Sequence record: PV660452
Source of the DNA: Escherichia phage LF82-9
Length of the DNA: 64,000 bases
Direction: 5' to 3' (one strand)
Shown here: positions 23,434 to 42,315 of the stretch, piece by piece
Layout of the letters: every line of letters starts with the position of its first letter
Numbering within the stretch: position 1 is the stretch's first letter
Made by a program: the position numbers and the translations under genes
Notes under the pieces: generated by a model
Told to the model about the DNA's origin: nothing
What the model saw: only the letters and a program-made list of their open reading frames with translations
Database searches by the model: none

Positions 23434-23434
23434 A

Positions 23435-24069: not shown

Positions 24070-24087
24070 TTAAAATATTCTCGCAGT

Positions 24088-26305: not shown

Positions 26306-26330
26306 AATATTTTCCTCTCGTTAAGATAGA

Positions 26331-26363: not shown

Positions 26364-26367
26364 CGTT

Positions 26368-27327
26368 TTATGATTTTAATGCATTCATTGCATTAAAAAG
26401 TTTAGAGTACTGCAACTGGAGATTCGTTACAACACTTTGAGCATCACGAAGCTTAGCTTGTGCTTTGTCAAGTTCAACGGACAGTTGGTCTGCAGTAGCC
26501 TTGATTTGGTTGTAATGATAATCTTCGGCCGGAAGAAGGTCATTAGAAACATTTAGTTTTACTGCCGACAGTTTGCACACATTTGGCAAACCTTTAAACA
26601 TACCGGGTTGTGTCGGAGAATATGCGCTTAGAACCTCTGCATTACCGACTGGTGTTGCTGTAATATTGCCTTCAAACAATGCATTTTCCTTTTTAAGATT
26701 TTGATAGTATTCAGAGTCTTTGTGCCACCATGGCGCAGGAACCTTTTTACCAATAGATACACGAGCCTGGATAGCGATATGGCCCTTATTCTTGATAGGG
26801 TCGATAATATTAAGCTCACGAGAATAAATTGCTTTAATTTGGTGAATATTATCACCTAACACTTCCAACGCTTGGTGGAATACACGAGCAACGTTATCGT
26901 TCTTAGGTTTATATGTAAGAGTGAACTCGTTCTCACTGATAACCATGATTTCTAACTTATCGTAAGTATATTTCAAATGTTTCATGTTAATTGCTTGAGG
27001 ACGAATACGAGAAGCAATGGCCATCAGATTGTTAAGGTTATTTCGGAACTGTTTAGCGAAATATTGTCCTTCACCGCCGATACAAAAATTACGAAGTTTC
27101 TGTTTGGCTAATAAACGGCTGAACTCACCATTTTTAATGAACTCTTTAACGGGTGTGTTAGTAATGCATTCAAATTGAGTAAACATACGAGAATTAATCC
27201 CATAATATGAACAGATTTCCTCAATCTCTTCAGGAGTCTTTACAGGCATACGGATAGGATTAGGTCCTGGAGTATATGCGTTCGAGGTAAATTCTTTGAT
27301 AAGTTCTCTACGTGTAATAAAAGCCAT
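26368..27327 (-). CDS. hypothetical protein with C-terminal coiled coil
   Basis: 319-aa ORF. Confidence 0.5.
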   Translation of the reverse strand: MAFITRRELIKEFTSNAYTPGPNPIRMPVKTPEEIEEICSYYGINSRMFTQFECITNTPVKEFIKNGEFSRLLAKQKLRNFCIGGEGQYFAKQFRNNLNNLMAIASRIRPQAINMKHLKYTYDKLEIMVISENEFTLTYKPKNDNVARVFHQALEVLGDNIHQIKAIYSRELNIIDPIKNKGHIAIQARVSIGKKVPAPWWHKDSEYYQNLKKENALFEGNITATPVGNAEVLSAYSPTQPGMFKGLPNVCKLSAVKLNVSNDLLPAEDYHYNQIKATADQLSVELDKAQAKLRDAQSVVTNLQLQYSKLFNAMNALKS

Positions 27328-27350
27328 TTTATATTCCTCATGTTGAAAAA

Positions 27351-27383
27351 TTTATTATACTCCAACCATCCTTGGTTGTACAT
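27351..27383 (-). promoter_or_regulatory. early promoter/stem-loop cassette (near-identical copy of 26331..26363)
   Basis: TTTATTATACTCCAACCATCCTTGGTTGTA shared with 26331 copy. Confidence 0.5.
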
Positions 27384-28378
27384 CATTCCTTAAGAAGTTT
27401 TACTACTTGAATAAGATTAGCTCGTTCTGTTTTATTTTTACCGTTTAAGCCTGCTAATCGTGAGATTTCATCGTCAGTCTGTTGAATAGTTACATTAAGT
27501 TCGTTAATCAAAGCTTCAAAGTATTTGATTTGCTCAGCATGTTTTGATTCAAATTTCTGAACCGGAATAACGTCTTGGTTCAGTCCATCAATAAGGTCTT
27601 TAAGAGCATCTTCTTGGTTGATATCATATTCAACTTCCTTTATTTCTTCAACGAGCTCGTCTTTATATCTAACGTCTTTTAGTCCTGGTGCTGGTCCTGA
27701 AATCTCTTCTTTAAGAGTACAAACATACCCAATACGGTATCCAATGCCGTCTCGCTTGATATCAACTTCGTCGATAAATCCACAATGTTTAAGTCCAGAG
27801 CCGATTATGTCAAAATATCCTTGACGACGTCCTTCAAACGTTACACGAACTACTAAGACAGTTTTGCCACCGACCTTTTGAAGCTCACATTTATAAAAGT
27901 CCGTTGAACCTGAATAACGTGGATGAGTTTTAAAGTTCATCTGACGATCTAGGCCCATTTGTAAACGTGCTGTTACGGCCATAAAACGTGTTTGGTTCTC
28001 GTTAAGATGAGCAACAATCCATTTCAAAGGCATTTTACACTGTTCACGACCGAACAAATCAGTACGTCCTAGATTACGCAGGATGTTGTTAGAGTTAATC
28101 ATCGACAGAACGTTAAGTTTATTCAACGCGCTGAAGATTCCGTCAGCCATTGATTTTCCATAACCTTTACACGCTTTAATAAGTGCTCGCGGCAGATTAG
28201 TATAGATTTCAGACGGCATATGAAAATCAAATTTACTAGTCAGTAATTGATGAACTTGGATAGCAATTTGCTCATAATTAAGTGCTCTGCGATCGTTATG
28301 GTCTTTAAACCACACTTTAATCTGTGAAGCACATAAACCGTTAATTTCATGTTTTACCGCATCAGATGTAATGCTCAT
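27383..28378 (-). CDS. hypothetical protein with C-terminal coiled coil
   Basis: 331-aa ORF. Confidence 0.5.
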   Translation of the reverse strand: MSITSDAVKHEINGLCASQIKVWFKDHNDRRALNYEQIAIQVHQLLTSKFDFHMPSEIYTNLPRALIKACKGYGKSMADGIFSALNKLNVLSMINSNNILRNLGRTDLFGREQCKMPLKWIVAHLNENQTRFMAVTARLQMGLDRQMNFKTHPRYSGSTDFYKCELQKVGGKTVLVVRVTFEGRRQGYFDIIGSGLKHCGFIDEVDIKRDGIGYRIGYVCTLKEEISGPAPGLKDVRYKDELVEEIKEVEYDINQEDALKDLIDGLNQDVIPVQKFESKHAEQIKYFEALINELNVTIQQTDDEISRLAGLNGKNKTERANLIQVVKLLKE

Positions 28379-28440
28379 AACTATTTCCTCAGATTGAATT
28401 GGAACTCAAAACCATTATAACCCGTCCTTGGGTAAAGCGT

Positions 28441-28968
28441 TTATGCGTGAACCGTCTTTAAACGTTCTTCAAATTTCCGAAGAGTACTAATACGTTCTGC
28501 TTTCTGTTTTGTATAGTTTGCAATACGTTCTGAAGTGAGAGCGTATCGTTCGTTTACTGTTTCTTTCATGAAGTCAGGGATTTCACGAGAAGCTTTAATT
28601 TCATCAAACTTGTCGAGTACTGCCTGGTCTTCAGCGATTAAATTTTCGTACATCTCGATATCTTTCTTGATAAACTCGATATCTTCCTGGGTTACTTTGG
28701 ATAAACGAGACGCTTTATCCTTTTTGTACTGCTCGTTAGTTTCACGAGACCAGAATAATGTACGTTTTTTGTTAGTGTTTTTGTAGACTTCCACAATTCC
28801 AACTGAATCGATGATAACAATCCAATTCCAGCGAGATTTGAAAATCTGACCTCCGTCCACGGTAATCTCGTTATCATAAGCAACGTCATTAAAGAACTTG
28901 CTCTGTGCTTCAGATTTAAATTTACCGTCGTTATAATTTACCAGGTTGAAAATATCTTTAGCGTTCAT
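28441..28968 (-). CDS. hypothetical protein
   Basis: 175-aa ORF. Confidence 0.45.
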   Translation of the reverse strand: MNAKDIFNLVNYNDGKFKSEAQSKFFNDVAYDNEITVDGGQIFKSRWNWIVIIDSVGIVEVYKNTNKKRTLFWSRETNEQYKKDKASRLSKVTQEDIEFIKKDIEMYENLIAEDQAVLDKFDEIKASREIPDFMKETVNERYALTSERIANYTKQKAERISTLRKFEERLKTVHA

Positions 28969-28987
28969 GTTTTACCTCCAGTAGTTG

Positions 28988-29026
28988 ATAGGTCTATAAT
29001 AACACAACCATAGACCTTGTAAACAA
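28988..29026 (-). promoter_or_regulatory. early promoter/stem-loop cassette
   Basis: Minus strand GTTTACA N17 then -10 flanked by inverted repeat GGTCTAT/ATAGACC. Confidence 0.45.
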
Positions 29027-29314
29027 CTAAAAGAAACTTTTTTCAGTATTTTTTCCACTGAACCAAACCGACTTCGGGGTTTTCTGTAACTTTTCAGATT
29101 TAAGTTTCTCTTCCTGTTCTTTCTTATATACACTCTTGTCGTACTGGAGCATCTCTATGGCATTCTTTTGCAAACGATCTAAGGTAATTAAGGCTTTAGT
29201 TTTTCCTTTCAAGGAAGAGTCCTGGCGAACCTCCTCGCTATATTGCATTGTAGAACTAACCATACGATGAGCATAGAGTTCGACTGCGGCTTTAATTTTT
29301 TGCATAAAATCCAT
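29027..29314 (-). CDS. hypothetical protein
   Basis: 95-aa ORF. Confidence 0.35.
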   Translation of the reverse strand: MDFMQKIKAAVELYAHRMVSSTMQYSEEVRQDSSLKGKTKALITLDRLQKNAIEMLQYDKSVYKKEQEEKLKSEKLQKTPKSVWFSGKNTEKSFF

Positions 29315-29452
29315 AACATATCCTCTTTGATTTGTACATCATTATTTTTAAATATTTCTATGCCCTCAGTAGGTTCCTGGTGTCCTTCTTTGAGGTAAGC
29401 CATATGATTATTCATCTTTATGGCTTTTGTTACCTCAGGACTTCCTGTAAGC

Positions 29453-30433
29453 TTATTTCAGTAAAGTTACTTCAGAGATTTCCTCCCAACCATCTTTATC
29501 AGTTGAAATAAAATCTGCCACATAAAGAGCCGTACGTAATGATACATTGCGAAGACGAGACACGTTAGCCTTCATCCAGGACAATGCTTTGTACGTTTCA
29601 GCATTAGTCAAGCCACGTTTCTGCATCATGTCAGTAGATAATATTACATCTTCAACTCGAACCATAATCTCTTCATTAGAGTGTACTCCAAGGTCGAGAT
29701 ACACTGAACGAGATACTAAAGCTTGAAGGTGCGGAGCAAGTTTCGAACCGCGTTCTAACTCTTTATCGATATCAACGTTTGTAATGAAAACAATAGTACC
29801 TTCAAACTCAAATTCTTTATCGATACCCTTATCATCAAGATAAGATGATGCAGTGCTCCAGCAAACTTTGCGTTTATCATCAGTATCTAATGCTGCTTTA
29901 AGAAGGTTCAAGATATCTATATCCGAGAATACATCAACATCGTCGATTAAGAGAACGCTGTCTGCATCACGGTTGAGCCAAAGTTGTTCGTAAAGGCCAA
30001 TACCAGAGATTTTACCATTAATGCTTTTGTATTTGATGAAACCATTATCATTAGCATTATTAAGCGCTTTATCCAGAGAATACGTCTTACCAATACCAGC
30101 TGCACCTGAAATAATGAGTGAACGAATTTTGCCATCGATAATGCCATTCGTCATCATGTTCATTACTTTAAAGCGTTTGTTGATACGAGTTTTCATATCT
30201 TCAGTGCTTTCAACAACTGCAACTGGTGTCGTCTCAACTCCTTCCATTACGATGTCTGATTTGAAGACCCATACTCCACGTTCAGAACCATCAATCATAA
30301 CGAAAATTTTACCGTCACCTAAGTGGGAACATTCAGGATTAAGCTTTGCTGGGAACCATGTCTTTGTGGCAACATAAGAACCGGAGATTTCATTATTACG
30401 ATAGATACCTTTTTTGATTTGAACGTTGAACAT
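29453..30433 (-). CDS. P-loop ATPase (AAA-like)
   Basis: Walker A SGAAGIGKT, Walker B LLIDDVD; ATG at 30433 with GGAGAATAAA SD (track start is TTG). Confidence 0.6.
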   Translation of the reverse strand: MFNVQIKKGIYRNNEISGSYVATKTWFPAKLNPECSHLGDGKIFVMIDGSERGVWVFKSDIVMEGVETTPVAVVESTEDMKTRINKRFKVMNMMTNGIIDGKIRSLIISGAAGIGKTYSLDKALNNANDNGFIKYKSINGKISGIGLYEQLWLNRDADSVLLIDDVDVFSDIDILNLLKAALDTDDKRKVCWSTASSYLDDKGIDKEFEFEGTIVFITNVDIDKELERGSKLAPHLQALVSRSVYLDLGVHSNEEIMVRVEDVILSTDMMQKRGLTNAETYKALSWMKANVSRLRNVSLRTALYVADFISTDKDGWEEISEVTLLK

Positions 30434-30463
30434 TTTATTCTCCAAATTTACTCATTTCGTTTT

Positions 30464-30501
30464 GATAGGTCTATAATAACATATCCTAAAAACATGTACA
30501 C
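30464..30501 (-). promoter_or_regulatory. early promoter/stem-loop cassette
   Basis: GATAGGTCTATAATAACATATCC...TGTACA. Confidence 0.4.
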
Positions 30502-30529
30502 TACTTTTTAAAAATATTTTGACCCCCTA

Positions 30530-30547
30530 AAGGGCCCGAAGGCCCTT
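30530..30547 (-). terminator. hairpin just after stop of the nucleotidyltransferase-like gene
   Basis: AAGGGCC-CGAA-GGCCCTT; short T-run. Confidence 0.35.
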
Positions 30548-30548
30548 A

Positions 30549-31538
30549 TCATTTATAGTATGAATTGTGGTTTTCTAAGTAGACTTGCTCAAGGAAGTCA
30601 TCCCAGAAACTCATATCTACTTTTTGCTGCATACCATTCTTGGCAGCTTGTTCTGACGCATGTTCAACTTGGTCAACGATATCTTCTAGGAATTCTTGTA
30701 CAGTTTTAAACGTATGTTTACCAAGCTTAACATCGAGAATAAATGGAGCATCCTGAAGCGGGTAAACCAGGTCGCCGGTTTTGTAAATTTCTAAGAGCTG
30801 AAGTCCACCACGGCATGCGTGACTCAATGCTTTCCAATCAATGCCTTCATTGGCTTCTGCCTTACGAGCACGTTCACCGTAGTTCTCTTCAAGTTTAACC
30901 AGGATGGCATTGAACTCTTTGTTAGTTAACGTATCTTGGAATTTACGGTCTAACAGACTATAGAATGTTTGCTTACCTGTTTTCTCGTTTTCAGTTTCAA
31001 CCCATGAAGCAAATTCACCTATAGGCAAAACATTCTTCATATGTGATAAACGAATTACTGCACCGTTATCAAAGTATTGTCCCCATTCATTAGAACGTTT
31101 AAGGGCTTGACGAAGAACAGCCAGCCGAGAACCCTTGACACCGTATTTAGAAGCTTGCTTACGGACATACCCTAAATAAGATTTCATGTTAGTGGTATAG
31201 AAACGAGACCTGTTATCTTGAATATACTTCCATACATCAGGCAAATCAGATTTAACTACTAGACTTTGTGGAGTGTGAAGCATATCTAATGCGACGGTTT
31301 CACCATCCGCAGCTAGTTTAAAGAAATATTTGAGACTATATAACTCATGGTCTACGTCGTCTTTTGTGTTCTTAGAAGATGTGTTATTCGTGTTCTTGCT
31401 CATATGTTCTTTAACGTTACCGGTCAAGATATCACGAGCATGAGGGACATAAATTTCTTTAAAATCGACGTCAGACTCAGGAGTAGACGTTCCATAAAGG
31501 TGGCTACCAAAGTAGCCTTTCATAATTGTTTTCATCAT
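30549..31538 (-). CDS. nucleotidyltransferase-fold protein (Pol-beta superfamily motif)
   Basis: N-terminal GSHLYGTSTPESDVDF fits G[GS]x9-13DxD nucleotidyltransferase motif; helical C-terminus. Confidence 0.5.
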   Translation of the reverse strand: MMKTIMKGYFGSHLYGTSTPESDVDFKEIYVPHARDILTGNVKEHMSKNTNNTSSKNTKDDVDHELYSLKYFFKLAADGETVALDMLHTPQSLVVKSDLPDVWKYIQDNRSRFYTTNMKSYLGYVRKQASKYGVKGSRLAVLRQALKRSNEWGQYFDNGAVIRLSHMKNVLPIGEFASWVETENEKTGKQTFYSLLDRKFQDTLTNKEFNAILVKLEENYGERARKAEANEGIDWKALSHACRGGLQLLEIYKTGDLVYPLQDAPFILDVKLGKHTFKTVQEFLEDIVDQVEHASEQAAKNGMQQKVDMSFWDDFLEQVYLENHNSYYK

Positions 31539-32008
31539 TTAGCCTTATATTCAAGAGTAGGACAGACTTTTTCTTTATGAGCTTTAAGGTATTCACCTAT
31601 TAATGATTTCTTACGTTCAATAGGCTCAAGTCCATTTTTAATTCGTTCTTGGTTTTGTGCAATGAGCTCAATTTCTTTATAATATTTTCTGTCGTTATAT
31701 TTGTCTAACAACCAAGACGGACCAATTACCAACCCGGTAGCAATAAAAGCCATGACTGCTACAATTAAAATGCCTACACCAATTGAGGCTGGAACTAATG
31801 TCCATAGACTGCTAAAAACAAAGAATTTAGTTAAAATTTCCTGGCCAATGATTGTGACTGCTGCTAAAATCGCAAATCCAATAATTGAAGCAGCCAATAC
31901 CGGGATTAACGTTTTCCAAAAATAAGCACACAACGTTTTAGGACGATTCCATGTACTATTGAATGCAGCATAAATTTTATAGTGCCAAGAGTTTTCATTG
32001 ATAATCAT
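31535..32008 (-). CDS. membrane protein
   Basis: Several hydrophobic helices. Confidence 0.5.
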   Translation of the reverse strand: MIINENSWHYKIYAAFNSTWNRPKTLCAYFWKTLIPVLAASIIGFAILAAVTIIGQEILTKFFVFSSLWTLVPASIGVGILIVAVMAFIATGLVIGPSWLLDKYNDRKYYKEIELIAQNQERIKNGLEPIERKKSLIGEYLKAHKEKVCPTLEYKAK

Positions 32009-32017
32009 AATAATTCC

Positions 32018-32554
32018 TTATTTCAAAGTCGGGATAATAGAATCAAGATAAGCTTTAAGAGCAACTGCTTCGTCTTTGGTAAACGTAGTAATATGTGAAC
32101 GTAAATCATCAATTTGACGAATAGTTACGACATCACCATCTTCATAAGAATTCCGTACATCCAACGTCGTGGTATAGTTTAGAGCTACCGGATTAATAAT
32201 AAAAGCACCACGTCCTTTACCCCATTGAAGTTTAGCCTTTTCGGGTGTTTCAGGTGTTTCAGAATTCAAGAATTCTTTAACCTTATCAACGAATGTTTTC
32301 CAATTATCAATAGAAAGACACATATCTTCAGTTTCGATATTAGCACCACGTTCCCCACGATAAAAACGAACTTGTAGCTCATTGCCAATACTAGTTACGC
32401 TATTAAATCCTGAAGGAGCATAAGATAAAATCTCTTCCAATTCCATAGGAAGAATAGTAATACTATCATCTTCTTGAGTGAAAAGATAGGTATTACCGAG
32501 TTTTTCGATAGTCAAGTCACCGAACATTTCAGTTGTTTCAATTACAGTTTTCAT
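32018..32554 (-). CDS. hypothetical protein (ATG start)
   Basis: MKTVIETTEMF...; track start is alternative codon. Confidence 0.5.
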   Translation of the reverse strand: MKTVIETTEMFGDLTIEKLGNTYLFTQEDDSITILPMELEEILSYAPSGFNSVTSIGNELQVRFYRGERGANIETEDMCLSIDNWKTFVDKVKEFLNSETPETPEKAKLQWGKGRGAFIINPVALNYTTTLDVRNSYEDGDVVTIRQIDDLRSHITTFTKDEAVALKAYLDSIIPTLK

Positions 32555-32555
32555 A

Positions 32556-32735
32556 TTATTCACCAATTAAAGTTTCAACAAAATTCACCAAATCATTCTG
32601 ACGAGCATCAACTTGCTTTTCATAGAAGTCTCCGCTATCATTTACTGCGTGATAAGCTACATCATTTAAATCAGTATCGGCTTCACGCAAGTCATGGATA
32701 AGGTCCATCAATTTATTAGCTTGTTCACGGGTCAT
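32556..32735 (-). CDS. small acidic protein (59 aa), not in ORF track
   Basis: Hand translation MTREQANKLMDLIHDLREADTDLNDVAYHAVNDSGDFYEKQVDARQNDLVNFVETLIGE; stop then ATG of next gene (TAATATG). Confidence 0.4.
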   Translation of the reverse strand: MTREQANKLMDLIHDLREADTDLNDVAYHAVNDSGDFYEKQVDARQNDLVNFVETLIGE

Positions 32736-32861
32736 TTTACCATACTCGTTTCAATAAGATTCACTATGCCGTTTACCATGTTATAAGTAAACATCGGATA
32801 ATTGTATTGTACTACAACATAAGCGATAAGCAAAAGTTTCATTTTGTTCTCCGTTCGTTTT

Positions 32862-32900
32862 GGTAGGACTACTATAACATAGTCCTACCAAGATGTAAAC
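32862..32900 (-). promoter_or_regulatory. early promoter/stem-loop cassette
   Basis: GTTTACA N17 TATAGT with inverted repeat GGTAGGACTA/TAGTCCTACC. Confidence 0.45.
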
Positions 32901-33133
32901 TACCGATTGTGTTTTAAATGTTGATAAAGTTCTTCAACTTGTTTAGGGTCCAAAACAATTAGGTCATTTTCTTGGCGAAGATAAAGCCATCCCTTATCCC
33001 CAGGACCATTTTTACAAAACATCGCCACCATATCATCATCTTCAGCGCTTTCAGGTAAAAGTTCAAGCACACCGTCTTCAGATTTTCCAGTATAATCGTA
33101 AAGCATAATATCCTCACATAATCTCGTTAACAT
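32900..33133 (-). CDS. hypothetical protein
   Basis: 77-aa ORF. Confidence 0.4.
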   Translation of the reverse strand: MLTRLCEDIMLYDYTGKSEDGVLELLPESAEDDDMVAMFCKNGPGDKGWLYLRQENDLIVLDPKQVEELYQHLKHNR

Positions 33134-33293
33134 ACATTTGCAATTCGGTGTGAGCGTCGGCCATCTTTTTCATAGCTCTGTTAATGTCGATGTCTCCATC
33201 TTCGCAACCATGAGCATTTTCCCAATCAGATACCGCATTAGCGTACTCTTCAATCAAAAACATCAACTTAGAAATCTTTTCTTTACGTGTCAT
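33114..33293 (-). CDS. hypothetical protein (ATG with AGGAG SD)
   Basis: MTRKEKISKLMFLIEEYANAVSDWEN... Confidence 0.4.
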   Translation of the reverse strand: MTRKEKISKLMFLIEEYANAVSDWENAHGCEDGDIDINRAMKKMADAHTELQMYVNEIM

Positions 33294-33313
33294 AACGTTC
33301 TCCTCTAGTAAGT

Positions 33314-33349
33314 AAGGTCTACTATAACACAACCTGAGGAGAAGTAAAC
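33314..33349 (-). promoter_or_regulatory. early promoter/stem-loop cassette
   Basis: GTTTACT N16-17 TATAGT. Confidence 0.4.
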
Positions 33350-33360
33350 TGCTAAATGCA

Positions 33361-33390
33361 AAAAAGCCCCAACCTTTCGGAAGGGGCTTT
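33361..33390 (-). terminator. conserved terminator hairpin, copy 1 of 4
   Basis: AGCCCC..CCGAAAGG..GGGGCT then T6 on minus strand. Confidence 0.5.
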
Positions 33391-33392
33391 GA

Positions 33393-33950
33393 TTAGTTTT
33401 TGTAATATCGTAAAGGGTTGATATGGAATGAAAGCATTGCGCGTGGAATAGGACGTCTCAAAAGACTCTTAAGTTTCCAACCACAGTAAACACGCAGATA
33501 AAATGTAATACCACCAACCTTAAGATAAGGTATAGCAGCGAATAATCCCCATGCAGACTCGTTCCAAACTAAAAGATATCCATGATGTGCTGGGTCAGGA
33601 GATCCTGATTTAGTTTCGGCGTTGCCTTTATAGTGCCATTTTGATGAAGCTTCGCGACCTAAAACATGATACGAAAAATTATATGCTTTGTTGCGCCATA
33701 ACCAAGCTACGCGTTGAGCATATTTACCTATAACAGGAATTTTACGTATTTTAGACCAACGTTCAACATGGCCACGGTCACCATCGATAGGATTATCGTA
33801 AGTCATCATCCAGTCAAAGCCATAAGGTAGTTTACCGGTTTTTTCACTATGGAATGGAACTACAAATGGTGCTAGAATAATTGCTAAAATCGCTGCGATC
33901 CAATCTATAGGAACAAGAACAACCCAACTTACATATTTTAAAAATTTCAT
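33393..33950 (-). CDS. membrane protein
   Basis: N-terminal hydrophobic helix; 185 aa. Confidence 0.5.
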   Translation of the reverse strand: MKFLKYVSWVVLVPIDWIAAILAIILAPFVVPFHSEKTGKLPYGFDWMMTYDNPIDGDRGHVERWSKIRKIPVIGKYAQRVAWLWRNKAYNFSYHVLGREASSKWHYKGNAETKSGSPDPAHHGYLLVWNESAWGLFAAIPYLKVGGITFYLRVYCGWKLKSLLRRPIPRAMLSFHINPLRYYKN

Positions 33951-33974
33951 ATATCCTCTCTTAGTTTACAAGGA

Positions 33975-33982
33975 TATTTATA
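33975..33982 (-). promoter_or_regulatory. late promoter TATAAATA
   Basis: Exact TATAAATA on minus strand about 25 nt upstream of ATG at 33950. Confidence 0.45.
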
Positions 33983-33987
33983 CAAAA

Positions 33988-34011
33988 AGCCCCAACCTTT
34001 CGGAAGGGGCT
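33988..34011 (-). terminator. conserved terminator hairpin, copy 2 of 4
   Basis: Same hairpin sequence as 33365..33388. Confidence 0.45.
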
Positions 34012-34017
34012 AGTAAA

Positions 34018-34320
34018 TTAGATAGATGTAGGCTCTAATTTTATTTTCATGAACTCGGCAAATTGTCTGGCGGTTTTTATGCCTTGTTCATGACATTCAA
34101 ATGCATCATCACAGGGGCTATTTTTGTAATGCTTTGCCATATACTTATAGAATTTTTCAGAGTTCTCGACATTTTGAATTTCAAACAAAGTATATACGTT
34201 TTTAATCCCTGATTCCATAAAGTTATCAAAGTATGGGTCAATATGTGCAGTACCAACGATAGGAGTTGTTGCTGCAAAAAACCCCAGCATCGCCATGACA
34301 GCTATCGCTCTTAAGGCCAT
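34018..34320 (-). CDS. secreted/periplasmic protein (signal peptide)
   Basis: MALRAIAVMAMLGFFAATTPIVGTA signal-like N-terminus. Confidence 0.5.
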   Translation of the reverse strand: MALRAIAVMAMLGFFAATTPIVGTAHIDPYFDNFMESGIKNVYTLFEIQNVENSEKFYKYMAKHYKNSPCDDAFECHEQGIKTARQFAEFMKIKLEPTSI

Positions 34321-34332
34321 ATAGGCCTCCTG

Positions 34333-34545
34333 TTAATTTTGGCCAGTATTTATTTTTCGCCTTTGGACGGCCTTAACATCTGTGAGGTATTTTTCCAGCT
34401 TGCGCTTGCGTGTATAATCAGCTTTAGAACCAGTTTGACGGATATCCTCGTTTAAATGAGAAATAGAATGTCCTAATTCTCTTCGGATTTCATCCAATTG
34501 GGTTACAGTAAGATTACGAAGTTGTCTTTCGTTTAATTGCTGCAT
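34333..34545 (-). CDS. hypothetical protein
   Basis: 70-aa ORF. Confidence 0.4.
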
Positions 34546-34572
34546 ATATACCTCTTGGTTAGATATTAGTAT

Positions 34573-35154
34573 TTATAACAACCCTGTCAAATCATTCCAA
34601 TGCTTCCGGCATAATGACACATATCTATCGGTATCACCAATTTCAATTTGACTGCCATCTGTAATTGGAAGTCCGTCTTCCGTGACTCTAGCTACCATTG
34701 TGGCCTTTTTACCACAATGACAGACACCTTTAAGTTCAACAAGCTTATCGGCAATAGCCATTAATGCTTGAGAACCTTCAAATAGATTACCTTTAAAATC
34801 TGTTCGTAGTCCATATGCCATTACCGGCACATTGTATACGTCAACAATACGACTAAGTTGATACACCTTTTCAGTAGTTAAGAACTGAGCTTCGTCAACA
34901 AATACGCAGTGAATATCCTTTTGTGCTGCAGCCCATTTATAGAATTCAAAGATATCCATGTCTTTTGTAATTATATTGGCATCCTGACGAATACCAATAC
35001 GAGAGACTATTTCACCTTTTGAATTACGAGTATCAATAGCCGGTTTAAGAACTAATACACCCATGCCACGTTCTTTATAGTTATGTGCGGCAGTAAGTAA
35101 TGAAGCAGACTTACCAGCGTTCATAGCGGCATAGGTAAAAATTAAACTAGCCAT
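34573..35154 (-). CDS. tk: thymidine kinase
   Basis: P-loop AMNAGKS, Zn-binding CHCGK..C; 193 aa as T4 Tk. Confidence 0.92.
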   Translation of the reverse strand: MASLIFTYAAMNAGKSASLLTAAHNYKERGMGVLVLKPAIDTRNSKGEIVSRIGIRQDANIITKDMDIFEFYKWAAAQKDIHCVFVDEAQFLTTEKVYQLSRIVDVYNVPVMAYGLRTDFKGNLFEGSQALMAIADKLVELKGVCHCGKKATMVARVTEDGLPITDGSQIEIGDTDRYVSLCRKHWNDLTGLL

Positions 35155-35344
35155 AAGAGTCCTTAGTTAAATTTTCTAAATATGTTTCTAAATCATTTTC
35201 AGCTTTATTGATAGATTTTACTAATTCGTAGTATGTTTCGGCATCTCCATATTCAGAAGATATTTCAAAAGACAAATCCTTTTCTAAACTAATAATTTCA
35301 CCAACTAAAAATAATATTTCGTTCTTTTGTTCGCGAGTAATCAT
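35147..35344 (-). CDS. hypothetical protein
   Basis: 65-aa ORF. Confidence 0.4.
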   Translation of the reverse strand: MITREQKNEILFLVGEIISLEKDLSFEISSEYGDAETYYELVKSINKAENDLETYLENLTKDSYG

Positions 35345-35532
35345 AATGAATTTATATAATCAATAAGTTCTTGCTCTTTATCGTCAAAATCTTTACACAG
35401 TTCTTCGTATTCGTCAGTATTAAAAGGACCGCATTCATTACAAACTTTTTCCAATTCGCTATTTTTATCCATAACTTCGTGGATAAGAGAAAAGAGTTTG
35501 TCTTTTTGTTCTTTACTTAAACTCATAACCAT
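35341..35532 (-). CDS. hypothetical protein
   Basis: 63-aa ORF. Confidence 0.4.
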   Translation of the reverse strand: MVMSLSKEQKDKLFSLIHEVMDKNSELEKVCNECGPFNTDEYEELCKDFDDKEQELIDYINSL

Positions 35533-35750
35533 GTCACCTTTAAACAGTATTCTTCTACATGCTGTTTACGACCTTTCTTATCAATAAAGGTATATTCAAC
35601 GAATGTTCCAATGTAGTCTTTATCGACATCATGTGGACTATTAATTGGACATTTAGTACGACAAATGCGTTCCCATTGACGAATAATTACTGCTTTATTT
35701 TTAGGATCAAACGGATGTGGGTAATGCACATTCATAATAATGGTTCCCAA
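35523..35750 (-). CDS. hypothetical protein
   Basis: 75-aa ORF. Confidence 0.4.
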   Translation of the reverse strand: MGTIIMNVHYPHPFDPKNKAVIIRQWERICRTKCPINSPHDVDKDYIGTFVEYTFIDKKGRKQHVEEYCLKVTWL

Positions 35751-36229
35751 TCAACAATCACAATTTCTAGTTTAGTGGAATATGTATCAAGAATTTCTTC
35801 AATGATATCCCAGTTTCCACCACCTATACCTGCACCAATTCTTGGCATGTAAATCACAGGCTTTGCTATCTTATTCTTTCCGAATTTATTTAATTCTATT
35901 ATACAATTCATTAAAGCAGAGTACTCAAAATTAGGTCCGGGCTCAAACTGTGTATAAAGATTAAAGCAATAAGCTTTATGGGTCTTAAAATATTTTTCAT
36001 AAACCGAATAGGAACCGAGTTTAGACTCGTCTCCGAATTCGGTTTGAAGTTTATCGGCTTCTAAAATTTTTGGATAAGCCTTTGCTAATTGTCCTGCTAC
36101 ACCAGCGCCCATTGTATGAAAACAATTGCACCCATGAGCAATATTATTACCTTTAGAAAACAGGGCGACAATATCGCCCTTGATATAGTTTTTAATCACT
36201 TGCTGCAAGTCCTCTAGTATAAGAGTCAA
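35732..36229 (-). CDS. macro-domain-like protein (ADP-ribose binding/processing); start uncertain (TTG at 36229 or GTG at 36199)
   Basis: IAHGCNCFHTMGAGVAGQLAKAYP and PRIGAGIGGGNW resemble macro-domain motifs. Confidence 0.5.
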   Translation of the reverse strand: MTLILEDLQQVIKNYIKGDIVALFSKGNNIAHGCNCFHTMGAGVAGQLAKAYPKILEADKLQTEFGDESKLGSYSVYEKYFKTHKAYCFNLYTQFEPGPNFEYSALMNCIIELNKFGKNKIAKPVIYMPRIGAGIGGGNWDIIEEILDTYSTKLEIVIVDWEPLL

Positions 36230-36539
36230 CTAGACGGTCCACCATAGAATTGCATGCTGCCTTATCTTTAGGTTCCGCCACCGAGCATTCTAATATTTGC
36301 CATTTTTTATAGTATCTTTTAATTAAGGTAGACGCCTTGAACCTACTAGACGCCCCATCTTTTTCTCCGTCTTTATATGCATATAACAATTTTTGTGAAA
36401 AATCTACTTTACACTCTTGACTTTTACCACAATAATCAGACGCCGTTCTGTTTGTATACTCCGTTACATCAGTATATGTAGTATTAGCAAGAGCGTTAAA
36501 TGAAACCAAGCCAACTATTAAAGCCAACATTTTGGTCAT
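36192..36539 (-). CDS. periplasmic protein (signal peptide)
   Basis: MTKMLALIVGLVSFNALA signal peptide. Confidence 0.5.
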   Translation of the reverse strand: MTKMLALIVGLVSFNALANTTYTDVTEYTNRTASDYCGKSQECKVDFSQKLLYAYKDGEKDGASSRFKASTLIKRYYKKWQILECSVAEPKDKAACNSMVDRLVDSYTRGLAASD

Positions 36540-37078
36540 TCTTTTATTTCCAGTAGTTTATTTGATTTAAGGTAATTAGCCTTTTCTAGGACTTCAGAAG
36601 CATATTTACTTCCAGCACTTGTCTTCCATCCAGCATTATATGAGGATATGGCTTTCCTTATATCCCCGTTATGTATATTTAACCAATAAGAAAATTCGAT
36701 ATAAGCCCATCTTGCTGAATTAGACCGCTTAGATAGCATTTTCTTAATTTGGGCATCAGTCATATTATAACCAAGCTGGTTAATTCTTGCCCTCATTGTT
36801 GGTAGATAATTTTGGAACATTCCATACGCATGGTGACCTTTCTTATCTTTAAGATTAATACCGGCAGATGATTCCTGCCATAGTATTGCGGCCATTATGT
36901 ATCCAAGTCCTTTCTTATGCATATTTTCATGCGTTTTAAATTTTCCATCCTTAGAAAACTGTTCCCCAAACTGATAAGCATAATTCAAGTTATCGAGTTG
37001 GACATTACTAAAAGTATGCTCGGAGCTATGTGCTGATAACGAAAGAGCAAATAGACCAGCGAGTAGTGCTTTTCTCAT
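36536..37078 (-). CDS. secreted lytic transglycosylase-like protein
   Basis: Signal peptide plus WQESSAG...GMFQ resembling family 1 lytic transglycosylase catalytic motif. Confidence 0.55.
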   Translation of the reverse strand: MRKALLAGLFALSLSAHSSEHTFSNVQLDNLNYAYQFGEQFSKDGKFKTHENMHKKGLGYIMAAILWQESSAGINLKDKKGHHAYGMFQNYLPTMRARINQLGYNMTDAQIKKMLSKRSNSARWAYIEFSYWLNIHNGDIRKAISSYNAGWKTSAGSKYASEVLEKANYLKSNKLLEIKE

Positions 37079-37086
37079 GTTTACCT

Positions 37087-37545
37087 CTAGATTTTAATCA
37101 CTGCTTTAGAAGCTTTTCCTGGTAGTCGTTTACTGTTAATAATAGCCATTCTGCATTGAAGAGTCTTCATTTTGAATGCTGGATTTTCGCGACAAACTGT
37201 AAGTCCTAACCAAAGATTTCCATCAGTTATTTCTAAACGGCCTGGGCGATATTCGACACCTTCGACAAAATCTTCATCAACATCTGGACGTGCCGGCATT
37301 GATAAAAATTCTGCAACTTCTTTAGCATGATTTTTTACTTTATGAAATAATTCAAAAACGTAATTCTCATCTATTTCTCTCTGGATGGCACGATCTAAGA
37401 GATGTTGAGAATACTTGATATGAAAGCCTGGTAGTCCAAGAGACTTTGCAGCATCTTTTATACCGGCATTTATTTTGCGGAACTCCGTTTCAAAGATTCG
37501 ACGGAGTTTATTACGGCGGATAAAAACTTCCGAATTGATAGTCAT
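37087..37545 (-). CDS. regB: endoribonuclease RegB
   Basis: MTINSEVFIRRNKLRR.. close to T4 RegB; ATG at 37545 with GAGGAG SD. Confidence 0.9.
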   Translation of the reverse strand: MTINSEVFIRRNKLRRIFETEFRKINAGIKDAAKSLGLPGFHIKYSQHLLDRAIQREIDENYVFELFHKVKNHAKEVAEFLSMPARPDVDEDFVEGVEYRPGRLEITDGNLWLGLTVCRENPAFKMKTLQCRMAIINSKRLPGKASKAVIKI

Positions 37546-37564
37546 TTTGATTTCTCCTCTAGTT

Positions 37565-37602
37565 GACAAGTCTATAGTAACACAACTAGAGGAGAAGTAA
37601 AC
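37565..37602 (-). promoter_or_regulatory. early promoter/stem-loop cassette upstream of regB
   Basis: GTTTACT N17 then -10 region with inverted repeat. Confidence 0.4.
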
Positions 37603-37901
37603 TACTCTTTGAAAGGAATTAACTTTTTAACTGCTTTAGATACTTCGTCACGAACCTGATGGAAGTTCTTGAGCTGTTCAAGGCGTTGTTCGTAATACGC
37701 AATCTCATCTTCTTCAAGACAATCGTCAGCGTCTTCTTTCAGATATGCCTTGTACTCATTAAAGAGGGCCCATAGGCGGTTCTCAAAGTCATCAAGGCTT
37801 TGAATTTTCTTGTGCTTCGGAACAAGGCCAAAAGGATTGCTTTCAGTTATGCGTCTAGATGCTTCATAATGAGTTCCAAAGCCTGATAGGATTTGAGCCA
37901 T
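37602..37901 (-). CDS. hypothetical protein (vs region)
   Basis: 99-aa ORF. Confidence 0.45.
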
Positions 37902-38167
37902 TAGTATTTTTCCTCAGGTCGAAATACTGCACGACAGGCCCACATGCTGGCTTCTTTTAGATGTTGCTTAGCATACTTAAGAGCCTGTACTGCATCCATA
38001 TCTTCTTTGGTTTGTTGCTCTGTTTCATTTTCTTTCAAGATATATGCTTCTTCAATCAGAGCATCAAACAACAATCCAAGACGGACTTCTGCATCTTTAA
38101 TAGCGTTCACTTTACCGATTTTATCGTCGGTATGCGGCTTGTAGCCTTTGATGTCTTCAATCGACAT
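37901..38167 (-). CDS. hypothetical protein (vs region), ATG with GAGGAAA SD
   Basis: [20 protein letters not shown]... Confidence 0.4.
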
Positions 38168-38381
38168 AAGGAATTTCCTCATCGGTGACAAGGTCATATT
38201 CGACCAATTGGATAGGCTCGTTAATACCATATCCACGTACAGTGATATCGGTTGTCGGATATTTTCCAGTAATATCACCCATTCTAAATGCTTCAGTGAA
38301 TGATTGCTCACCTGAGCAACTAAACCAGGCGGCAAAACATTTTAAAACATCTTCAGACCCTTCTATAATCAATTTAGCCAT
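38157..38381 (-). CDS. hypothetical protein
   Basis: 74-aa ORF; ATG overlaps stop of GrcA-like gene. Confidence 0.45.
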   Translation of the reverse strand: MAKLIIEGSEDVLKCFAAWFSCSGEQSFTEAFRMGDITGKYPTTDITVRGYGINEPIQLVEYDLVTDEEIPYVD

Positions 38382-38743
38382 TATAGACTCTCAGTAAAGG
38401 TACGAGCGATAACGTCGCGCTGCTGTTCCGGAGTCAGAGAGTTAAAGCGAACTGCATAACCGGATACACGAATGGTCAGCTGAGGATATTTTTCCGGATG
38501 CTTAACTGCATCTTCCAGAGTTTCACGACGCAGAACGTTAACGTTCAGGTGTTGACCACCTTCAATTTTAACTTTAGGTTGATGTTCAATTTCAATTTCA
38601 CGGGCATGTAAACCGTAGAAAATTTCCGGGTCTACAATAGCGTCTTCTTTAAAAGTCTTAGAGACGATAATCCGGGCTTGAGTACCATCTTCAAAATAAA
38701 TAGTGCCTTTATGTACACCTTCAAGAATTTGATATGCTTTCAT
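38381..38743 (-). CDS. autonomous glycyl radical cofactor (GrcA/YfiD-like; T4 Y06I-like)
   Basis: C-terminal half near-identical to E. coli GrcA incl. glycyl-radical motif RVSGYAV. Confidence 0.85.
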
Positions 38744-38749
38744 ATAACC

Positions 38750-39058
38750 TCAATTAGAAAATAAATTTATCCAAGTTTTTTCTTTAATCAAAAATGGGTC
38801 GGAATTAAACGCCATTAAACTTTGAGTGATTAATCCCTTAAACGGCCCATCAATAAATTCCATTTTGAAATGCGGAATACTAGTCATCAACCGTGCATTA
38901 GGAGCAGTACAAAGAACCTGCTGCCCCGCGAAAGGACCTTTAGTCAAACTGTATCGTTTAGGTTTAAAATGGTAAATCTCATAATTTTCTACAAGAGCCC
39001 TTTTATTGCATACTGGGCTGTTATAACAATATTCAAAAACTTCAATAGTGGTCATCAT
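38750..39058 (-). CDS. hypothetical protein
   Basis: 102-aa ORF. Confidence 0.45.
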   Translation of the reverse strand: MMTTIEVFEYCYNSPVCNKRALVENYEIYHFKPKRYSLTKGPFAGQQVLCTAPNARLMTSIPHFKMEFIDGPFKGLITQSLMAFNSDPFLIKEKTWINLFSN

Positions 39059-39595
39059 TGCATTCCAATCACAAAAAATTGAGGACGAGCATTACCGCCG
39101 ATGCAATATTTGCTTTTGCAACAGTGTTGGACTGTTTTAATATGGACATTGTAAATCTTATCCATATCAGGAGCTTTAATAGGCTCGTCAATTATGTACA
39201 GAATACGAGAAAGCGTTAATCCACGGAATTTAGAACCTTCATTGCCAATAAAACTACGGACAGAATCGGTAAATAAACGGAATCGAATATCATCGCTAGA
39301 ATAACGAGAAAATTCTTTTTTTAATGTTGCCAGCAGAAATTTTAGCATAGGCTGAAGTATTAGAAAGAACAATAACTGTTCCACCATCATACAGCCAATT
39401 AGCAGCAAAGTTAGTCACAGCAATTGATTTACCTGATTGTCGGCCGCCGTCTAAACGAAGTGTACAGTACTGCTTGAGTACGTCTTCAAACGGTGGGATA
39501 TAACCGTTCTTACAAATTTCTTCTACTCTAGCATCAGAATGGTGTGTAAAAGCATTCATCAGGGATAGATAAGGTCCAGTTAAAAATGTTCTCAT
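39055..39595 (-). pseudogene. P-loop NTPase gene split by a frameshift at a T7 homopolymer (39316..39322)
   Basis: N-part carries Walker A GGRQSGKS, C-part Walker B LYIIDEP; removing one T fuses both frames (..AGNIKK|EFSRYSSDD..). Confidence 0.55.
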
Positions 39596-39672
39596 TTAGT
39601 TTCTCTTTTAGGTTGGGCCATTCCGTGGCGCATGAATTGTCCATTTCTGTATTTACCCCTCTAAGTAATTAT

Positions 39673-39706
39673 GAATATACTATCACAATTCTAGGAGAAA
39701 GTAAAC
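39673..39706 (-). promoter_or_regulatory. early promoter/stem-loop cassette
   Basis: GTTTACT N17 TAGTAT. Confidence 0.4.
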
Positions 39707-39708
39707 TG

Positions 39709-40011
39709 TTATTTACCTTTAATTACTTTAGCTGCTTCGATAGCCGCTTGCTGAAGGTCATCCATAGACATACCGAATTTAGAAGCAAAGTTATCAATTT
39801 TCTTTTCGACAGCATTCAAAGGCTTGGCCTGTTTACCTTCATTAGCGCCAGGAAGAGCGAGAATACGCTCTTTGTCAATATAAAGGCTTACAAGTTTCTT
39901 ACGGTCTTTATCGGACAAATCATGAAATGAATGGGCCTTTTTATTTATAGCGGCTTCTAATTTACCTGCACTCACTCGCGCTTCAGTAATAAATTCTTGA
40001 TATGTTTTCAT
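39709..40011 (-). CDS. internal protein (IP) with capsid-targeting N-terminus
   Basis: N-terminus MKTYQEFITEA as in T4 IPI/II/III. Confidence 0.7.
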   Translation of the reverse strand: MKTYQEFITEARVSAGKLEAAINKKAHSFHDLSDKDRKKLVSLYIDKERILALPGANEGKQAKPLNAVEKKIDNFASKFGMSMDDLQQAAIEAAKVIKGK

Positions 40012-40075
40012 TTTTTGTTTCCTTGTTTGTTTTGATAGAGTAATTATACCATATTAATACTTAAGCGTAAACAAT

Positions 40076-40336
40076 TTAAGCTTTACCGCCAGAAATAATT
40101 CCGAAGTTGTTAAAATCGTATCCAATATCGTCAACATCTACTTTAGGATTTACTACAACATAAGCAATTTCACTACGTTTTGCATAGGTGTTGATTTCTT
40201 TACCATCGCCACCTAAGAAAGAATACCCATTACGTTTTAATGAGCCAAAGTCTTCGGCATCACCAATGAAAGCTTTAACTTTAAATTTAGGACCTTTGGC
40301 ATCTGCTTCAATGATAAATTCTTGATACATTTTCAT
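40076..40336 (-). CDS. internal protein-like with capsid-targeting N-terminus
   Basis: N-terminus MKMYQEFIIEA. Confidence 0.65.
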   Translation of the reverse strand: MKMYQEFIIEADAKGPKFKVKAFIGDAEDFGSLKRNGYSFLGGDGKEINTYAKRSEIAYVVVNPKVDVDDIGYDFNNFGIISGGKA

Positions 40337-40342
40337 TTTTCC

Positions 40343-40756
40343 TTAGTAAATTGATTTACCATAGTATTTGTACCAAGTAGGACGTTGAGCAATTTTTTCA
40401 TCTAAGCGTGCTTGACTTATCGCAACGGACGCTTCGGACGGGACATAATTATTACGAAATTCGGCAGGGATGTCGGAAATATCCTGGACTGTCGTGTCCT
40501 TGATTTTGAAACCACGTTTCAAGCATTCAGCGATTAGCTCGATTTGTCGTAAACGTAAAAATTCAAGTTTGTCGTAAAAGAATGTTACGTGACCTGTGCC
40601 TAAGATAAATGTTGGAGAGATTTTAAAATCCTTTACACGTTTACCGTTTTGGACATGTTTACGGACTGCACTAAATACGCGTGGTAATTCACGATACTCA
40701 GCCATAAGATGTTGATCGGTCAGTTCAGAAACAAGTGTTAAATTGATACGAGTCAT
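40343..40756 (-). CDS. denV: endonuclease V (pyrimidine dimer glycosylase DenV)
   Basis: [27 protein letters not shown].. near-identical to T4 DenV. Confidence 0.93.
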
Positions 40757-40774
40757 AATTTCCTCCAAGTAGTT

Positions 40775-40813
40775 GATGAATGTATAGTATCAAAACCCTT
40801 GGAGGAAGTAAAC
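40775..40813 (-). promoter_or_regulatory. early promoter/stem-loop cassette upstream of denV
   Basis: GTTTACT followed by hairpin and TA-rich -10. Confidence 0.4.
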
Positions 40814-40814
40814 A

Positions 40815-41096
40815 CTATTTTTCTGAAGCGCCTGAAATATATTTTTCAAGACGTTGTTTCATCAGCGAGCCGTTCTTAGCGATTTCTTCCGGTTTATCGC
40901 ACATACGTAACAAGGCTTCAAGCTTAGCGATATCGCTGGTACGTTCAAATTTGCGAGTATCTATCTTACTAGCAAGTTCAGAAATACGTGCTAATAGACT
41001 TTCGGCTTCAACCAAAGCTGCACCTAGCTTAGTTGCAAATGTGTCAGTAGCTTCGTTAAGAATAGATTCTGATAAAAATTCACTATATGTTTTCAT
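40815..41096 (-). CDS. internal protein-like with capsid-targeting N-terminus
   Basis: [11 protein letters not shown]... Confidence 0.55.
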
Positions 41097-41581
41097 ATAT
41101 ACGCTTTCCAAGTTCCTGTTTTAAATGTTGAGATTACGCGTTTCGCGCGATTAGGTGTCTGACGATACCATTTAGATTGGGCGAGATTTACTGCCGCTTC
41201 ATCCCAACGTTTCTGTTGAAGCATACGAAGAGAATTAGTAAAACCAGCAACGCCTGCTACACCCATTTGGAAGACCATATTGACCAATGCACACCGACGA
41301 ACTGCATCTAAAGAATCATATACCGGTTTAAGTTTAGCATTACCCAAGATTCCGCGAACGGCTTTATCGACGTCTTCATTAAATAGCTTTTCAGCCTCAT
41401 CAAGGGTAATTGTACCGTTGCATTTACGACCGATCATTCTGTCAAGTTCAGCTTTAGCTACGGCTAAAGACGGGTTCTTTGTTACCAAGTGGCCTATGCC
41501 AATCGTCCAAAAGCCTTCAGTGTCTTTGTATAAAGTCAGTCTAAGACCTTCGTCATTACGAAGCATTTCAAATATATTCAT
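41093..41581 (-). CDS. e: lysozyme (gene e)
   Basis: [29 protein letters not shown] near-identical to T4 lysozyme. Confidence 0.97.
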
Positions 41582-41609
41582 AATACCTCCCACGTTTATA
41601 GGAGGTATT
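41582..41609 (-). promoter_or_regulatory. RBS-sequestering hairpin with late-promoter-like TATAAAC in the loop, upstream of gene e
   Basis: Minus strand AATACCTCC-TATAAACGTG-GGAGGTATT then ATG; SD GGAGG paired with ACCTCC. Confidence 0.5.
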
Positions 41610-41615
41610 TATTAC

Positions 41616-42074
41616 TTATAGGATGGTAGTGAGCACCTTATATAATGATTTGCCCATTACATATTCCCATTGAGAAGGTTTAATTAAAGCGAATGCATCA
41701 AATTCAGGAATCTGTCGTCCGTCCTGGAATGTATGATATGAATTACAAACACTGTTTCTGAATTGCTCGTGCTCTACAGGGATGGTATATAGGAACAGAT
41801 GAATATTCTTATTGTCTGAGTAATGATGTTCACCTAGGTCTTTCAGGAAGGCAGGGTCATATTGTGTAAACCCAGTTTCTTCTTCGCATTCACGAATAGC
41901 GGCTTCGATAGGAGATTCGCCAGGTTCGACACGGCCTTTAGGAATATCCCACCGATGAGCTAATGCACCTTTAGGACGAGAACCAGTTACACGACCCATG
42001 AATAATTCTTTATCTTTTGTCATGAAGATAATACCGGCTGATAGTTCTTTCACTTTATTTTTCTTACTCATCAT
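41616..42074 (-). CDS. nudE: Nudix hydrolase NudE
   Basis: Nudix box GRVEPGESPIEAAIRECEEETG. Confidence 0.88.
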   Translation of the reverse strand: MMSKKNKVKELSAGIIFMTKDKELFMGRVTGSRPKGALAHRWDIPKGRVEPGESPIEAAIRECEEETGFTQYDPAFLKDLGEHHYSDNKNIHLFLYTIPVEHEQFRNSVCNSYHTFQDGRQIPEFDAFALIKPSQWEYVMGKSLYKVLTTIL

Positions 42075-42315
42075 CTCGGTCCCATGATTTGGCCATTAAT
42101 TCGGACATAAATTCTTCAATACGCGTTTCTTTAGATGGACTTTCACTATTAGAGACCGCAAGTTTGTAATCTGCAATAGGACTGAACAAATCAAGGTCCG
42201 TATTAAGGTCGTCTTTGATTTTTTCTTCTGACACATCTTTATCATATGTGTACAGATAACTATCACATGATTCTGATTTAATGTAAATTGCTATACTCAT
42301 CTCAAATTCCTGCAT
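42064..42315 (-). CDS. hypothetical acidic protein
   Basis: 83-aa ORF. Confidence 0.4.
   Translation of the reverse strand: MQEFEMSIAIYIKSESCDSYLYTYDKDVSEEKIKDDLNTDLDLFSPIADYKLAVSNSESPSKETRIEEFMSELMAKSWDRDDE

Follow-up and report, generated by a model that had tools for sequence, protein, structure and literature searches.

We analyzed a 64,000-nucleotide (nt) stretch of DNA from Escherichia phage LF82-9 (record PV660452; hereafter, the window), in which a minus-strand open reading frame runs from a TTG at 36229 to a TGA stop at 35732 and encodes 165 amino acids (aa). This frame is real and sits among short, closely packed minus-strand genes. As assigned by comparison with related phages, the true start of the gene is the GTG at 36199, which gives a protein of 155 aa (Table 1). 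The corresponding T4 codon is an ATG with an in-frame TAG directly before it, and an N-terminal extension is therefore impossible in that phage. The GTG/ATG position is where each of the 37 aligned homologues starts (in 31 cases with M-I), and tblastn matches in T4-type phages start at residue 11 of the 165-aa form. The GAGGA motif is likewise present in T4, 11 nt before its ATG in the alignment, and the span 35732..36199 is the one annotated in GenBank records of near-identical phages, including PV660448.1. The earlier note had left the start ambiguous between TTG and GTG, and its GTG was borne out. The TTG, whose use would yield the 165-aa form, has next to no probability and was ruled out on the T4 stop, the homologue starts, the GAGGA, and the GenBank annotation: the frame is open from this codon, but its extra codons overlap the vs coding sequence and the conserved GAGGA serves the GTG.

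Table 1. Coordinates of tk.4, its flanking genes, and the sequence elements discussed in the text (positions in the window).
Feature	Coordinates	Strand	Remarks
vs (valyl-tRNA synthetase modifier), upstream neighbor	36192..36539	-	TAA stop overlaps the tk.4 start (GTGATTAA)
Ten in-frame codons from TTG to GTG	36200..36229	-	Outside tk.4; within the 3' end of vs
tk.4 Shine-Dalgarno GAGGA	36210..36214	-	10 nt before the GTG, inside vs; read from the sequence
tk.4/adfM coding sequence	35732..36199	-	GTG start, TGA stop, 155 aa, ~17.4 kDa, pI 6.3, one macrodomain
Terminator-like hairpin at the tk.4 5' end	36162..36180	-	Codons 7-13; AGGGCGATATTGTCGCCCT, then GTTTTCT
G23-C24-N25 codons	36125..36133	-	End of the H-G-C-N motif (H22 just upstream); N25 aligns with DarG N22 (hhalign, MAFFT)
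Loop 1, GAGVAGQ, residues 31-37	36089..36109	-	Gly-rich, after the second core strand; predicted part of the ADP-ribose cleft
N80-L-Y82-T83-Q84 motif	35948..35962	-	Q84 at the position of DarG K80, TARG1 K84, and SCO6735 Gln85
Loop 2, PRIGAGIGGGNW, residues 119-130	35810..35845	-	Second Gly-rich, predicted ADP-ribose-binding loop; aligns with DarG PPLGAGNGGLDW
tk.3, downstream neighbor	35523..35735	-	ATG overlaps the tk.4 TGA (ATGA)

The gene order regB, vs.1, vs, tk.4, tk.3, tk.2, tk.1, tk agrees with that of T4 (gene tables of T4, RB69, and LF82-4), which identifies the gene as tk.4. Its product matches T4 Tk.4 over the full length without gaps, with 132 of 155 residues identical (85%, E=9e-105); the 23 substitutions include a glycine in the window protein for a lysine in T4 at position 127 of loop 2. 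The two genes share neighbors and orientation, an overlapping start with vs, and the Shine-Dalgarno sequence, but T4 tk.4 begins with ATG in a 4-nt overlap, whereas the window gene begins with GTG in an 8-nt overlap. Escherichia phage LF82-4 and its siblings match 35000..37600 of the window at 100% identity, and many other phages of the genus Mosigvirus (RB69 group) do so at 97-99%. Judged by sequence, the gene is the Mosigvirus orthologue of T4 tk.4.

Across 35147..36539 on the minus strand, six consecutive genes (vs.1, vs, tk.4, tk.3, tk.2, and tk.1), and then tk, are linked by start/stop overlaps of 4 or 8 nt (ATGA or the vs/tk.4 junction given in Table 1), which suggests translational coupling throughout this block. 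A scan of 34300..38500 with a sigma-70 promoter model only was uninformative (13 sites versus 14.9 expected). We also observed the terminator-like hairpin within the 5' end of tk.4. A 91-nt RNA around it had a folding energy of -22.7 kcal/mol (z = -2.6), and the Yersinia phage fPS-65 record annotates a "terminator" at this spot. The 19-nt hairpin sequence is identical in T4, in fPS-65, and in ECO07P1 (overall protein identity only 58%), and was absent in the alignment from Edwardsiella phage PEi20. The element might act as an attenuator or couple translation, or it might be no more than a conserved recombination junction with vs.

For the wider window, the annotation of LF82-4 (PV660448.1) served as a map, valid for 15296..42203 (99.9% identity) and, with an offset of +821, for 822..14921. 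The window departs from this record at about 14.9-15.3 kb and in much of 42.2-52.8 kb, and coordinates away from tk.4 were therefore rechecked on the window itself. The ~375 nt at ~14921..15296 of the window correspond to ~1.2 kb in LF82-4 that includes an HNH endonuclease gene; the two phages thus show a presence/absence polymorphism for an insert of the homing-endonuclease type beside the SbcD-like gene 47. Ten tRNA genes (Arg, Asn, Tyr, Met, Thr, Ser, Pro, Gly, Leu, and Gln) lie at 50270..51217 on the minus strand. In the record that best matches the tk region, LF82-4, only one tRNA is listed for the equivalent interval, and most of 42.2-52.8 kb can be aligned to it only piecewise (84-97%). 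The window and LF82-4 are accordingly mosaic relatives and not one and the same genome. On the minus strand at ~2966..3352 and ~5219..5854 (PV660448.1 coordinates +821), genes for a phosphoheptose isomerase and an arabinose-5-phosphate isomerase adjoin the DNA polymerase gene; a connection with the sugar hypermodification of cytosine in RB69-group DNA is possible. Among six open reading frames of ~175-330 aa at 25.3-31.5 kb, BLASTP found no paralogous match at E<=1e-3. The frame at 41093..41581 (minus strand) is labeled "hypothetical protein" in PV660448.1; we take its translation to be recognizable as T4 lysozyme (gene e), and the public annotation seems to be incomplete here. A neighboring 152-aa frame at 41616..42074 (minus strand), "nudix hydrolase" in the near-identical record, is by its position presumably the e.1/NudE homologue. 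T4 NudE hydrolyzes ADP-ribose, the product that a macrodomain releases.

The earlier note had called the tk.4 product macrodomain-like on the strength of two motifs, and both Gly-rich loops were indeed found, as MGAGVAGQ and as the loop 2 sequence of Table 1. The protein scored above the gathering cutoff of Pfam Macro PF01661 (28.1 versus 22 bits, E=2e-6; profile positions 2-117 of 118) and matched PHROG 335 (E=3.7e-66). With tblastn matches in 2,793 phage records, these family matches lie far beyond chance. The note had named the lack of a macro fold in structure prediction as grounds for rejecting its call, and we ran AlphaFold2 with 37 homologues as input and searched the result with Foldseek. 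The ligand-free model of the 155-aa protein (mean pLDDT 93.8, pTM 0.90) displays the three-layer alpha/beta/alpha fold with a central mixed sheet, and Foldseek matched it in the PDB with a probability of 1.00 to TARG1, Poa1p, BT1257, DarG macrodomains, and SCO6735. By structure as well as sequence, its nearest neighbors form the ALC1-like/TARG1-like class (TARG1, DarG, SCO6735, BT1257, and Poa1p), with the MacroD and viral classes apart. From the Pfam, PHROG, AlphaFold2, and Foldseek results together, we are therefore confident that the predicted product is a stand-alone macrodomain of 155 aa and falls in the TARG1/DarG/SCO6735 (ALC1-like) class.

Residues of the predicted active site are strongly conserved. 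Among 121 homologues, N80, Y82, and Q84 are invariant, as are G33 and A35 in loop 1, with G122 and G124 of loop 2 invariant or nearly so; N25 is kept in 119 and H22 in 118, and T4 Tk.4 shares N25 and Q84 with the window protein. That Q84, N80, Y82, N25, H22, and the Gly-rich loops vary so little speaks for a functional enzyme. Profile-profile alignment and MAFFT agreed in placing Q84 at DarG K80, TARG1 K84, and SCO6735 Q85, and N25 at DarG N22. The reference sequences for these comparisons came by several routes. Those of the Mycobacterium tuberculosis and Thermus aquaticus DarG macrodomains (5M3I and 5M31) were recovered through PDB alignments of a Mycobacterium intracellulare plasmid DarG; none of the plasmid matches searched for a DarG sequence carries a DarG annotation, and the protein used, a macro protein beside a DUF4433 fragment, is a true DarG at 392 bits. 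SCO6735 (5E3B) and BT1257 (2FG1) were obtained through PDB alignments of a Streptomyces plasmid homologue, and the TARG1 sequence used was confirmed to be identical to PDB 2LGR over residues 2-152.

Comparison with DarG, the antitoxin of DarTG2 (PDB 5M31/5M3E/5M3I), revealed clear differences. The window protein is 19-22% identical to it and reached 30.4 bits against the DarG model NF048014 (NCBIfam), far from the 250-bit equivalog cutoff. Its match covers profile positions 4-146 of 338, and the 155-aa protein ends after the macrodomain, the C-terminal DarT-binding domain of DarG being absent. No darT (DUF4433) gene lies beside tk.4, where the neighbors are vs and tk.3. The catalytic K80 of DarG is replaced by Q84, a glutamine in 121/121 homologues. 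Membership of the DarG family was thus ruled out, with score, C-terminal domain, K80, and darT neighbor all failing. In DarG, the K80A mutant is inactive and no longer rescues from DarT, and N22A, a change at a residue that binds ADP-ribose, affected turnover more than any other mutation except K80A (PMC5179494). Since K80 is essential there and Q84 occupies its position here, the Tk.4 family cannot use that lysine, and activity cannot simply be transferred from DarG. The window protein nevertheless probably acts on the same substrate as DarG.

A closer model for such chemistry is offered by the Gln-type ALC1-like proteins SCO6735 of Streptomyces coelicolor and BT1257 of Bacteroides (2FG1/2AFC), which are only 21-30% identical to the window protein. 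SCO6735 strips ADP-ribose from thymidine, not from guanosine, and rescues Escherichia coli from DarT; its Gln85 is essential, with Q85A or Q85E inactive, and its authors proposed a water-initiated, lysine-independent mechanism in which the glutamine positions the substrate (PMC9411070). The window motifs N80-L-Y-T-Q84 and H22-G-C-N25 correspond to N81-M-I-G-Q85 and H24-V-C-N27 in SCO6735. The resemblance has limits: SCO6735 is bacterial and chromosomal, whereas the window protein is phage-borne; loop 1 reads MGAGVA in the window protein and GWGKGF in the SCO6735/BT1257 type; and the window protein has no equivalents of SCO6735 K34 and K89, both of which were mutated in SCO6735. An additional structural element was described for the SCO6735 subclass, and K89 was analyzed by mutagenesis (PMC9411070). 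SCO6735 and BT1257 contain an insertion of 5-6 residues after the glutamine (KTGSKG), lacking in the window protein and in T4 Tk.4; in SCO6735 it lies in the K89 loop and may be the "mobile loop" of that paper. Two further members of the fold class differ at the same site. Human TARG1/OARD1 (4J5S), which also removes thymine- and uracil-linked ADP-ribose, has a catalytic K84/D125 dyad where the window protein has Q84 and, in the alignment, G126, and yeast Poa1p (6LFQ) has a serine at the glutamine position (C-L-F-T-S versus N-L-Y-T-Q in the alignment row).

The function of the orthologue in T4 has recently become apparent. In the HIDEN-SEQ preprint of 20 November 2025, transposon sequencing on a DarTG2 host yielded one significant conditionally essential T4 gene, tk.4; a clean knockout confirmed that its deletion sensitizes T4 to DarTG2, and the gene, dispensable on E. 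coli K-12 and important only on the DarTG2 host, was renamed adfM (AdfM, anti-DarT factor, macrodomain) and proposed to strip ADP-ribose from DNA (bioRxiv 10.1101/2025.11.20.689424). T2 and T4 were still DarTG2-resistant without adfN (PMC11825919). The counter-defensive option raised in the earlier note thereby gained direct genetic support in T4. Its suggestion of ADP-ribose-derived signals as the defense context did not hold, as DarTG2 ADP-ribosylates DNA bases and does not act via a signaling molecule. The T4 RefSeq label of Tk.4, "phosphatase; contains A1pp phosphatase motif", already names the motif; the labels of tk.4-type genes in GenBank are mostly "phosphatase" or "hypothetical protein", with several "macro domain protein" or "Appr-1-p processing protein". 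Given the T4 orthology, the RefSeq label, and the preprint, the macrodomain finding is correct but already known, and hence not new. The invariant Q84 in place of the DarG/TARG1 catalytic lysine appears to be an unremarked refinement; the text of the preprint mentions neither lysine, nor glutamine, nor SCO6735.

We propose that the Mosigvirus Tk.4/AdfM orthologue removes DarT2-attached ADP-ribose from thymidines of single-stranded phage DNA, probably in a lysine-independent manner, and we assign this joint statement a probability of roughly 0.8. The anti-DarTG2 phenotype is taken from the literature, where it was obtained genetically, in a preprint, for T4 only. Beyond the fold, the orthology, and the conserved active-site residues observed here, we infer both the thymidine-ADP-ribose hydrolase activity and the chemical mechanism of the window protein. 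In the proposed scheme, DarT2 of a DarTG2 host would place ADP-ribose on thymidines of single-stranded phage DNA, and replication would be blocked. The tk.4 macrodomain, translated from the GTG that overlaps the vs stop within the tightly packed gene run, would bind the ADP-ribose via its two Gly-rich loops and N25 and cut the N-glycosidic bond between ribose and thymine, yielding free ADP-ribose and restored DNA, so that the product would in effect act as an "orphan antitoxin". With Q84 invariant at the lysine position, the lysine of DarG and TARG1 is probably unused, and the route proposed for SCO6735, where the glutamine positions the substrate and water starts the reaction, seems more likely. 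Observations that caution against this hydrolase reading include a pI of 6.3, which is not basic and is unexpected for a DNA-directed enzyme, and the missing insertion after the glutamine that SCO6735 carries in its K89 loop. RB69 carries tk.4 (gene table) and is strongly blocked by DarTG1, which modifies guanosine (PMC11825919); this combination fits a thymidine-specific enzyme such as SCO6735.

Other functions can be considered for such a fold. The protein might hydrolyze small-molecule ADP-ribose derivatives and have no role on DNA, acting as an Appr-1''-p phosphatase (like Poa1p) or an O-acetyl-ADP-ribose deacetylase. H22 and T29 match H23 and S30 of Poa1p, residues known from the titles of mutant PDB entries (position 29 being Thr, not Ser), so small-molecule activity in vitro is possible. 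We nonetheless consider this function improbable, because the "phosphatase" and deacetylase labels are family-level transfers, and because the one recorded phenotype of the orthologue is a loss of DarTG2 resistance, which small-molecule activity would not explain. Many macrodomains exhibit weak Appr-1''-p phosphatase activity in vitro without physiological meaning, and we know of no infection-specific source of Appr-1''-p in E. coli.

A second possibility retains the target but not the chemistry: The protein could bind and block DarT2 stoichiometrically, with hydrolysis secondary or absent, like AdfA/AdfB or the C-terminal domain of DarG. The absence of the DarG catalytic lysine points in this direction, as does the finding that catalytically dead SCO6735 Q85A inhibits DarT in vitro by interaction, beyond dead mutants of DarG and TARG1 (PMC9411070). 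The isolated DarG macrodomain K80A, however, failed to inhibit DarT (PMC5179494), and nothing in the window protein corresponds to the C-terminal domain by which DarG binds DarT (155 aa versus 338 profile positions). Moreover, homologues from widely differing phages and hosts show little or no variation at H22, N25, G33, A35, N80, Y82, and Q84 and in loop 2, as would be expected more of an enzyme with a universal substrate than of a protein that binds fast-evolving toxins. Blocking as the main mode is accordingly unlikely in our estimate.

T-even phages encode three ADP-ribosyltransferases, and the protein might reverse or tune this ADP-ribosylation (by Alt, ModA, and ModB on host proteins, or RNAylation by ModB), a link that the earlier note had drawn and for which we found nothing that ties the tk.4 protein to these enzymes. 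SCO6735 and TARG1 do act on protein substrates too, but Alt, ModA, and ModB target arginine, whereas TARG1-class macrodomains target acidic-residue esters and thymine or uracil bases; T4 tk.4 is dispensable on K-12; and the family is common in phages of many genera (Klebsiella, Pseudomonas, Vibrio, Acinetobacter), most of which are not known to have Alt/Mod homologues, all of which leaves this function very improbable.

Removal of ADP-ribose from DNA thus remains our preferred reading, and relatives of the protein are widespread. A tblastn search with the Tk.4-type query matched 2,793 of 50,697 phage records (~5%), spanning phages of Escherichia, Klebsiella, Salmonella, Pseudomonas, Vibrio, and Acinetobacter. 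The name AdfM has also been given to gp104 of the nucleus-forming phage PhiKZ, a protein that removes DarT2-made thymidine-ADP-ribose in vitro (Cell Rep 2026, PMC13309987). Like Tk.4, this protein is a phage-encoded, free-standing macrodomain that counters DarTG2. It is, however, of a Lys type that resembles DarG (N23, K78), whereas the Tk.4 type is of a Gln type, and it is imported into the phage nucleus, a structure that T-even phages lack. BLASTP between the PhiKZ-type AdfM and the window protein returned a local match of 23 residues only. When the T. aquaticus DarG macrodomain was used as the tblastn query, it matched 265 phage records, mostly of jumbo and phiEco32-like phages, and an evenly spaced sample of 30 of these 265 DarG-type matches contained no T-even phage. 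Judged from these searches, two distinct macrodomain lineages seem to fill the same anti-DarTG2 role. We give about even odds to the further proposal that T-even Tk.4/AdfM is a lysine-independent Gln-type hydrolase that was recruited against DarT2 independently of the PhiKZ Lys type and is kin to SCO6735/BT1257, not derived from DarG. If true, the name AdfM covers two separate lineages with different chemistry, and the Tk.4 type might resemble SCO6735 and TARG1 in taking wider substrates such as uracil-linked RNA or acidic-residue-linked protein ADP-ribose.

For annotation, the value of these data lies in a gene labeled "phosphatase" or "hypothetical protein" whose T4 orthologue has a tested counter-defense role. 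With a relative in ~5% of phage records, the family is probably among the commonest anti-DarT2 devices, which bears on the prediction of host range. The sole addition beyond the literature is the invariant glutamine at the position of the essential DarG/TARG1 lysine, in a lineage distinct from PhiKZ AdfM. This glutamine predicts a chemistry like that of SCO6735 and not like that of DarG, so that inhibitors or mechanistic models based on the DarG lysine should not be carried over to Tk.4-type enzymes.
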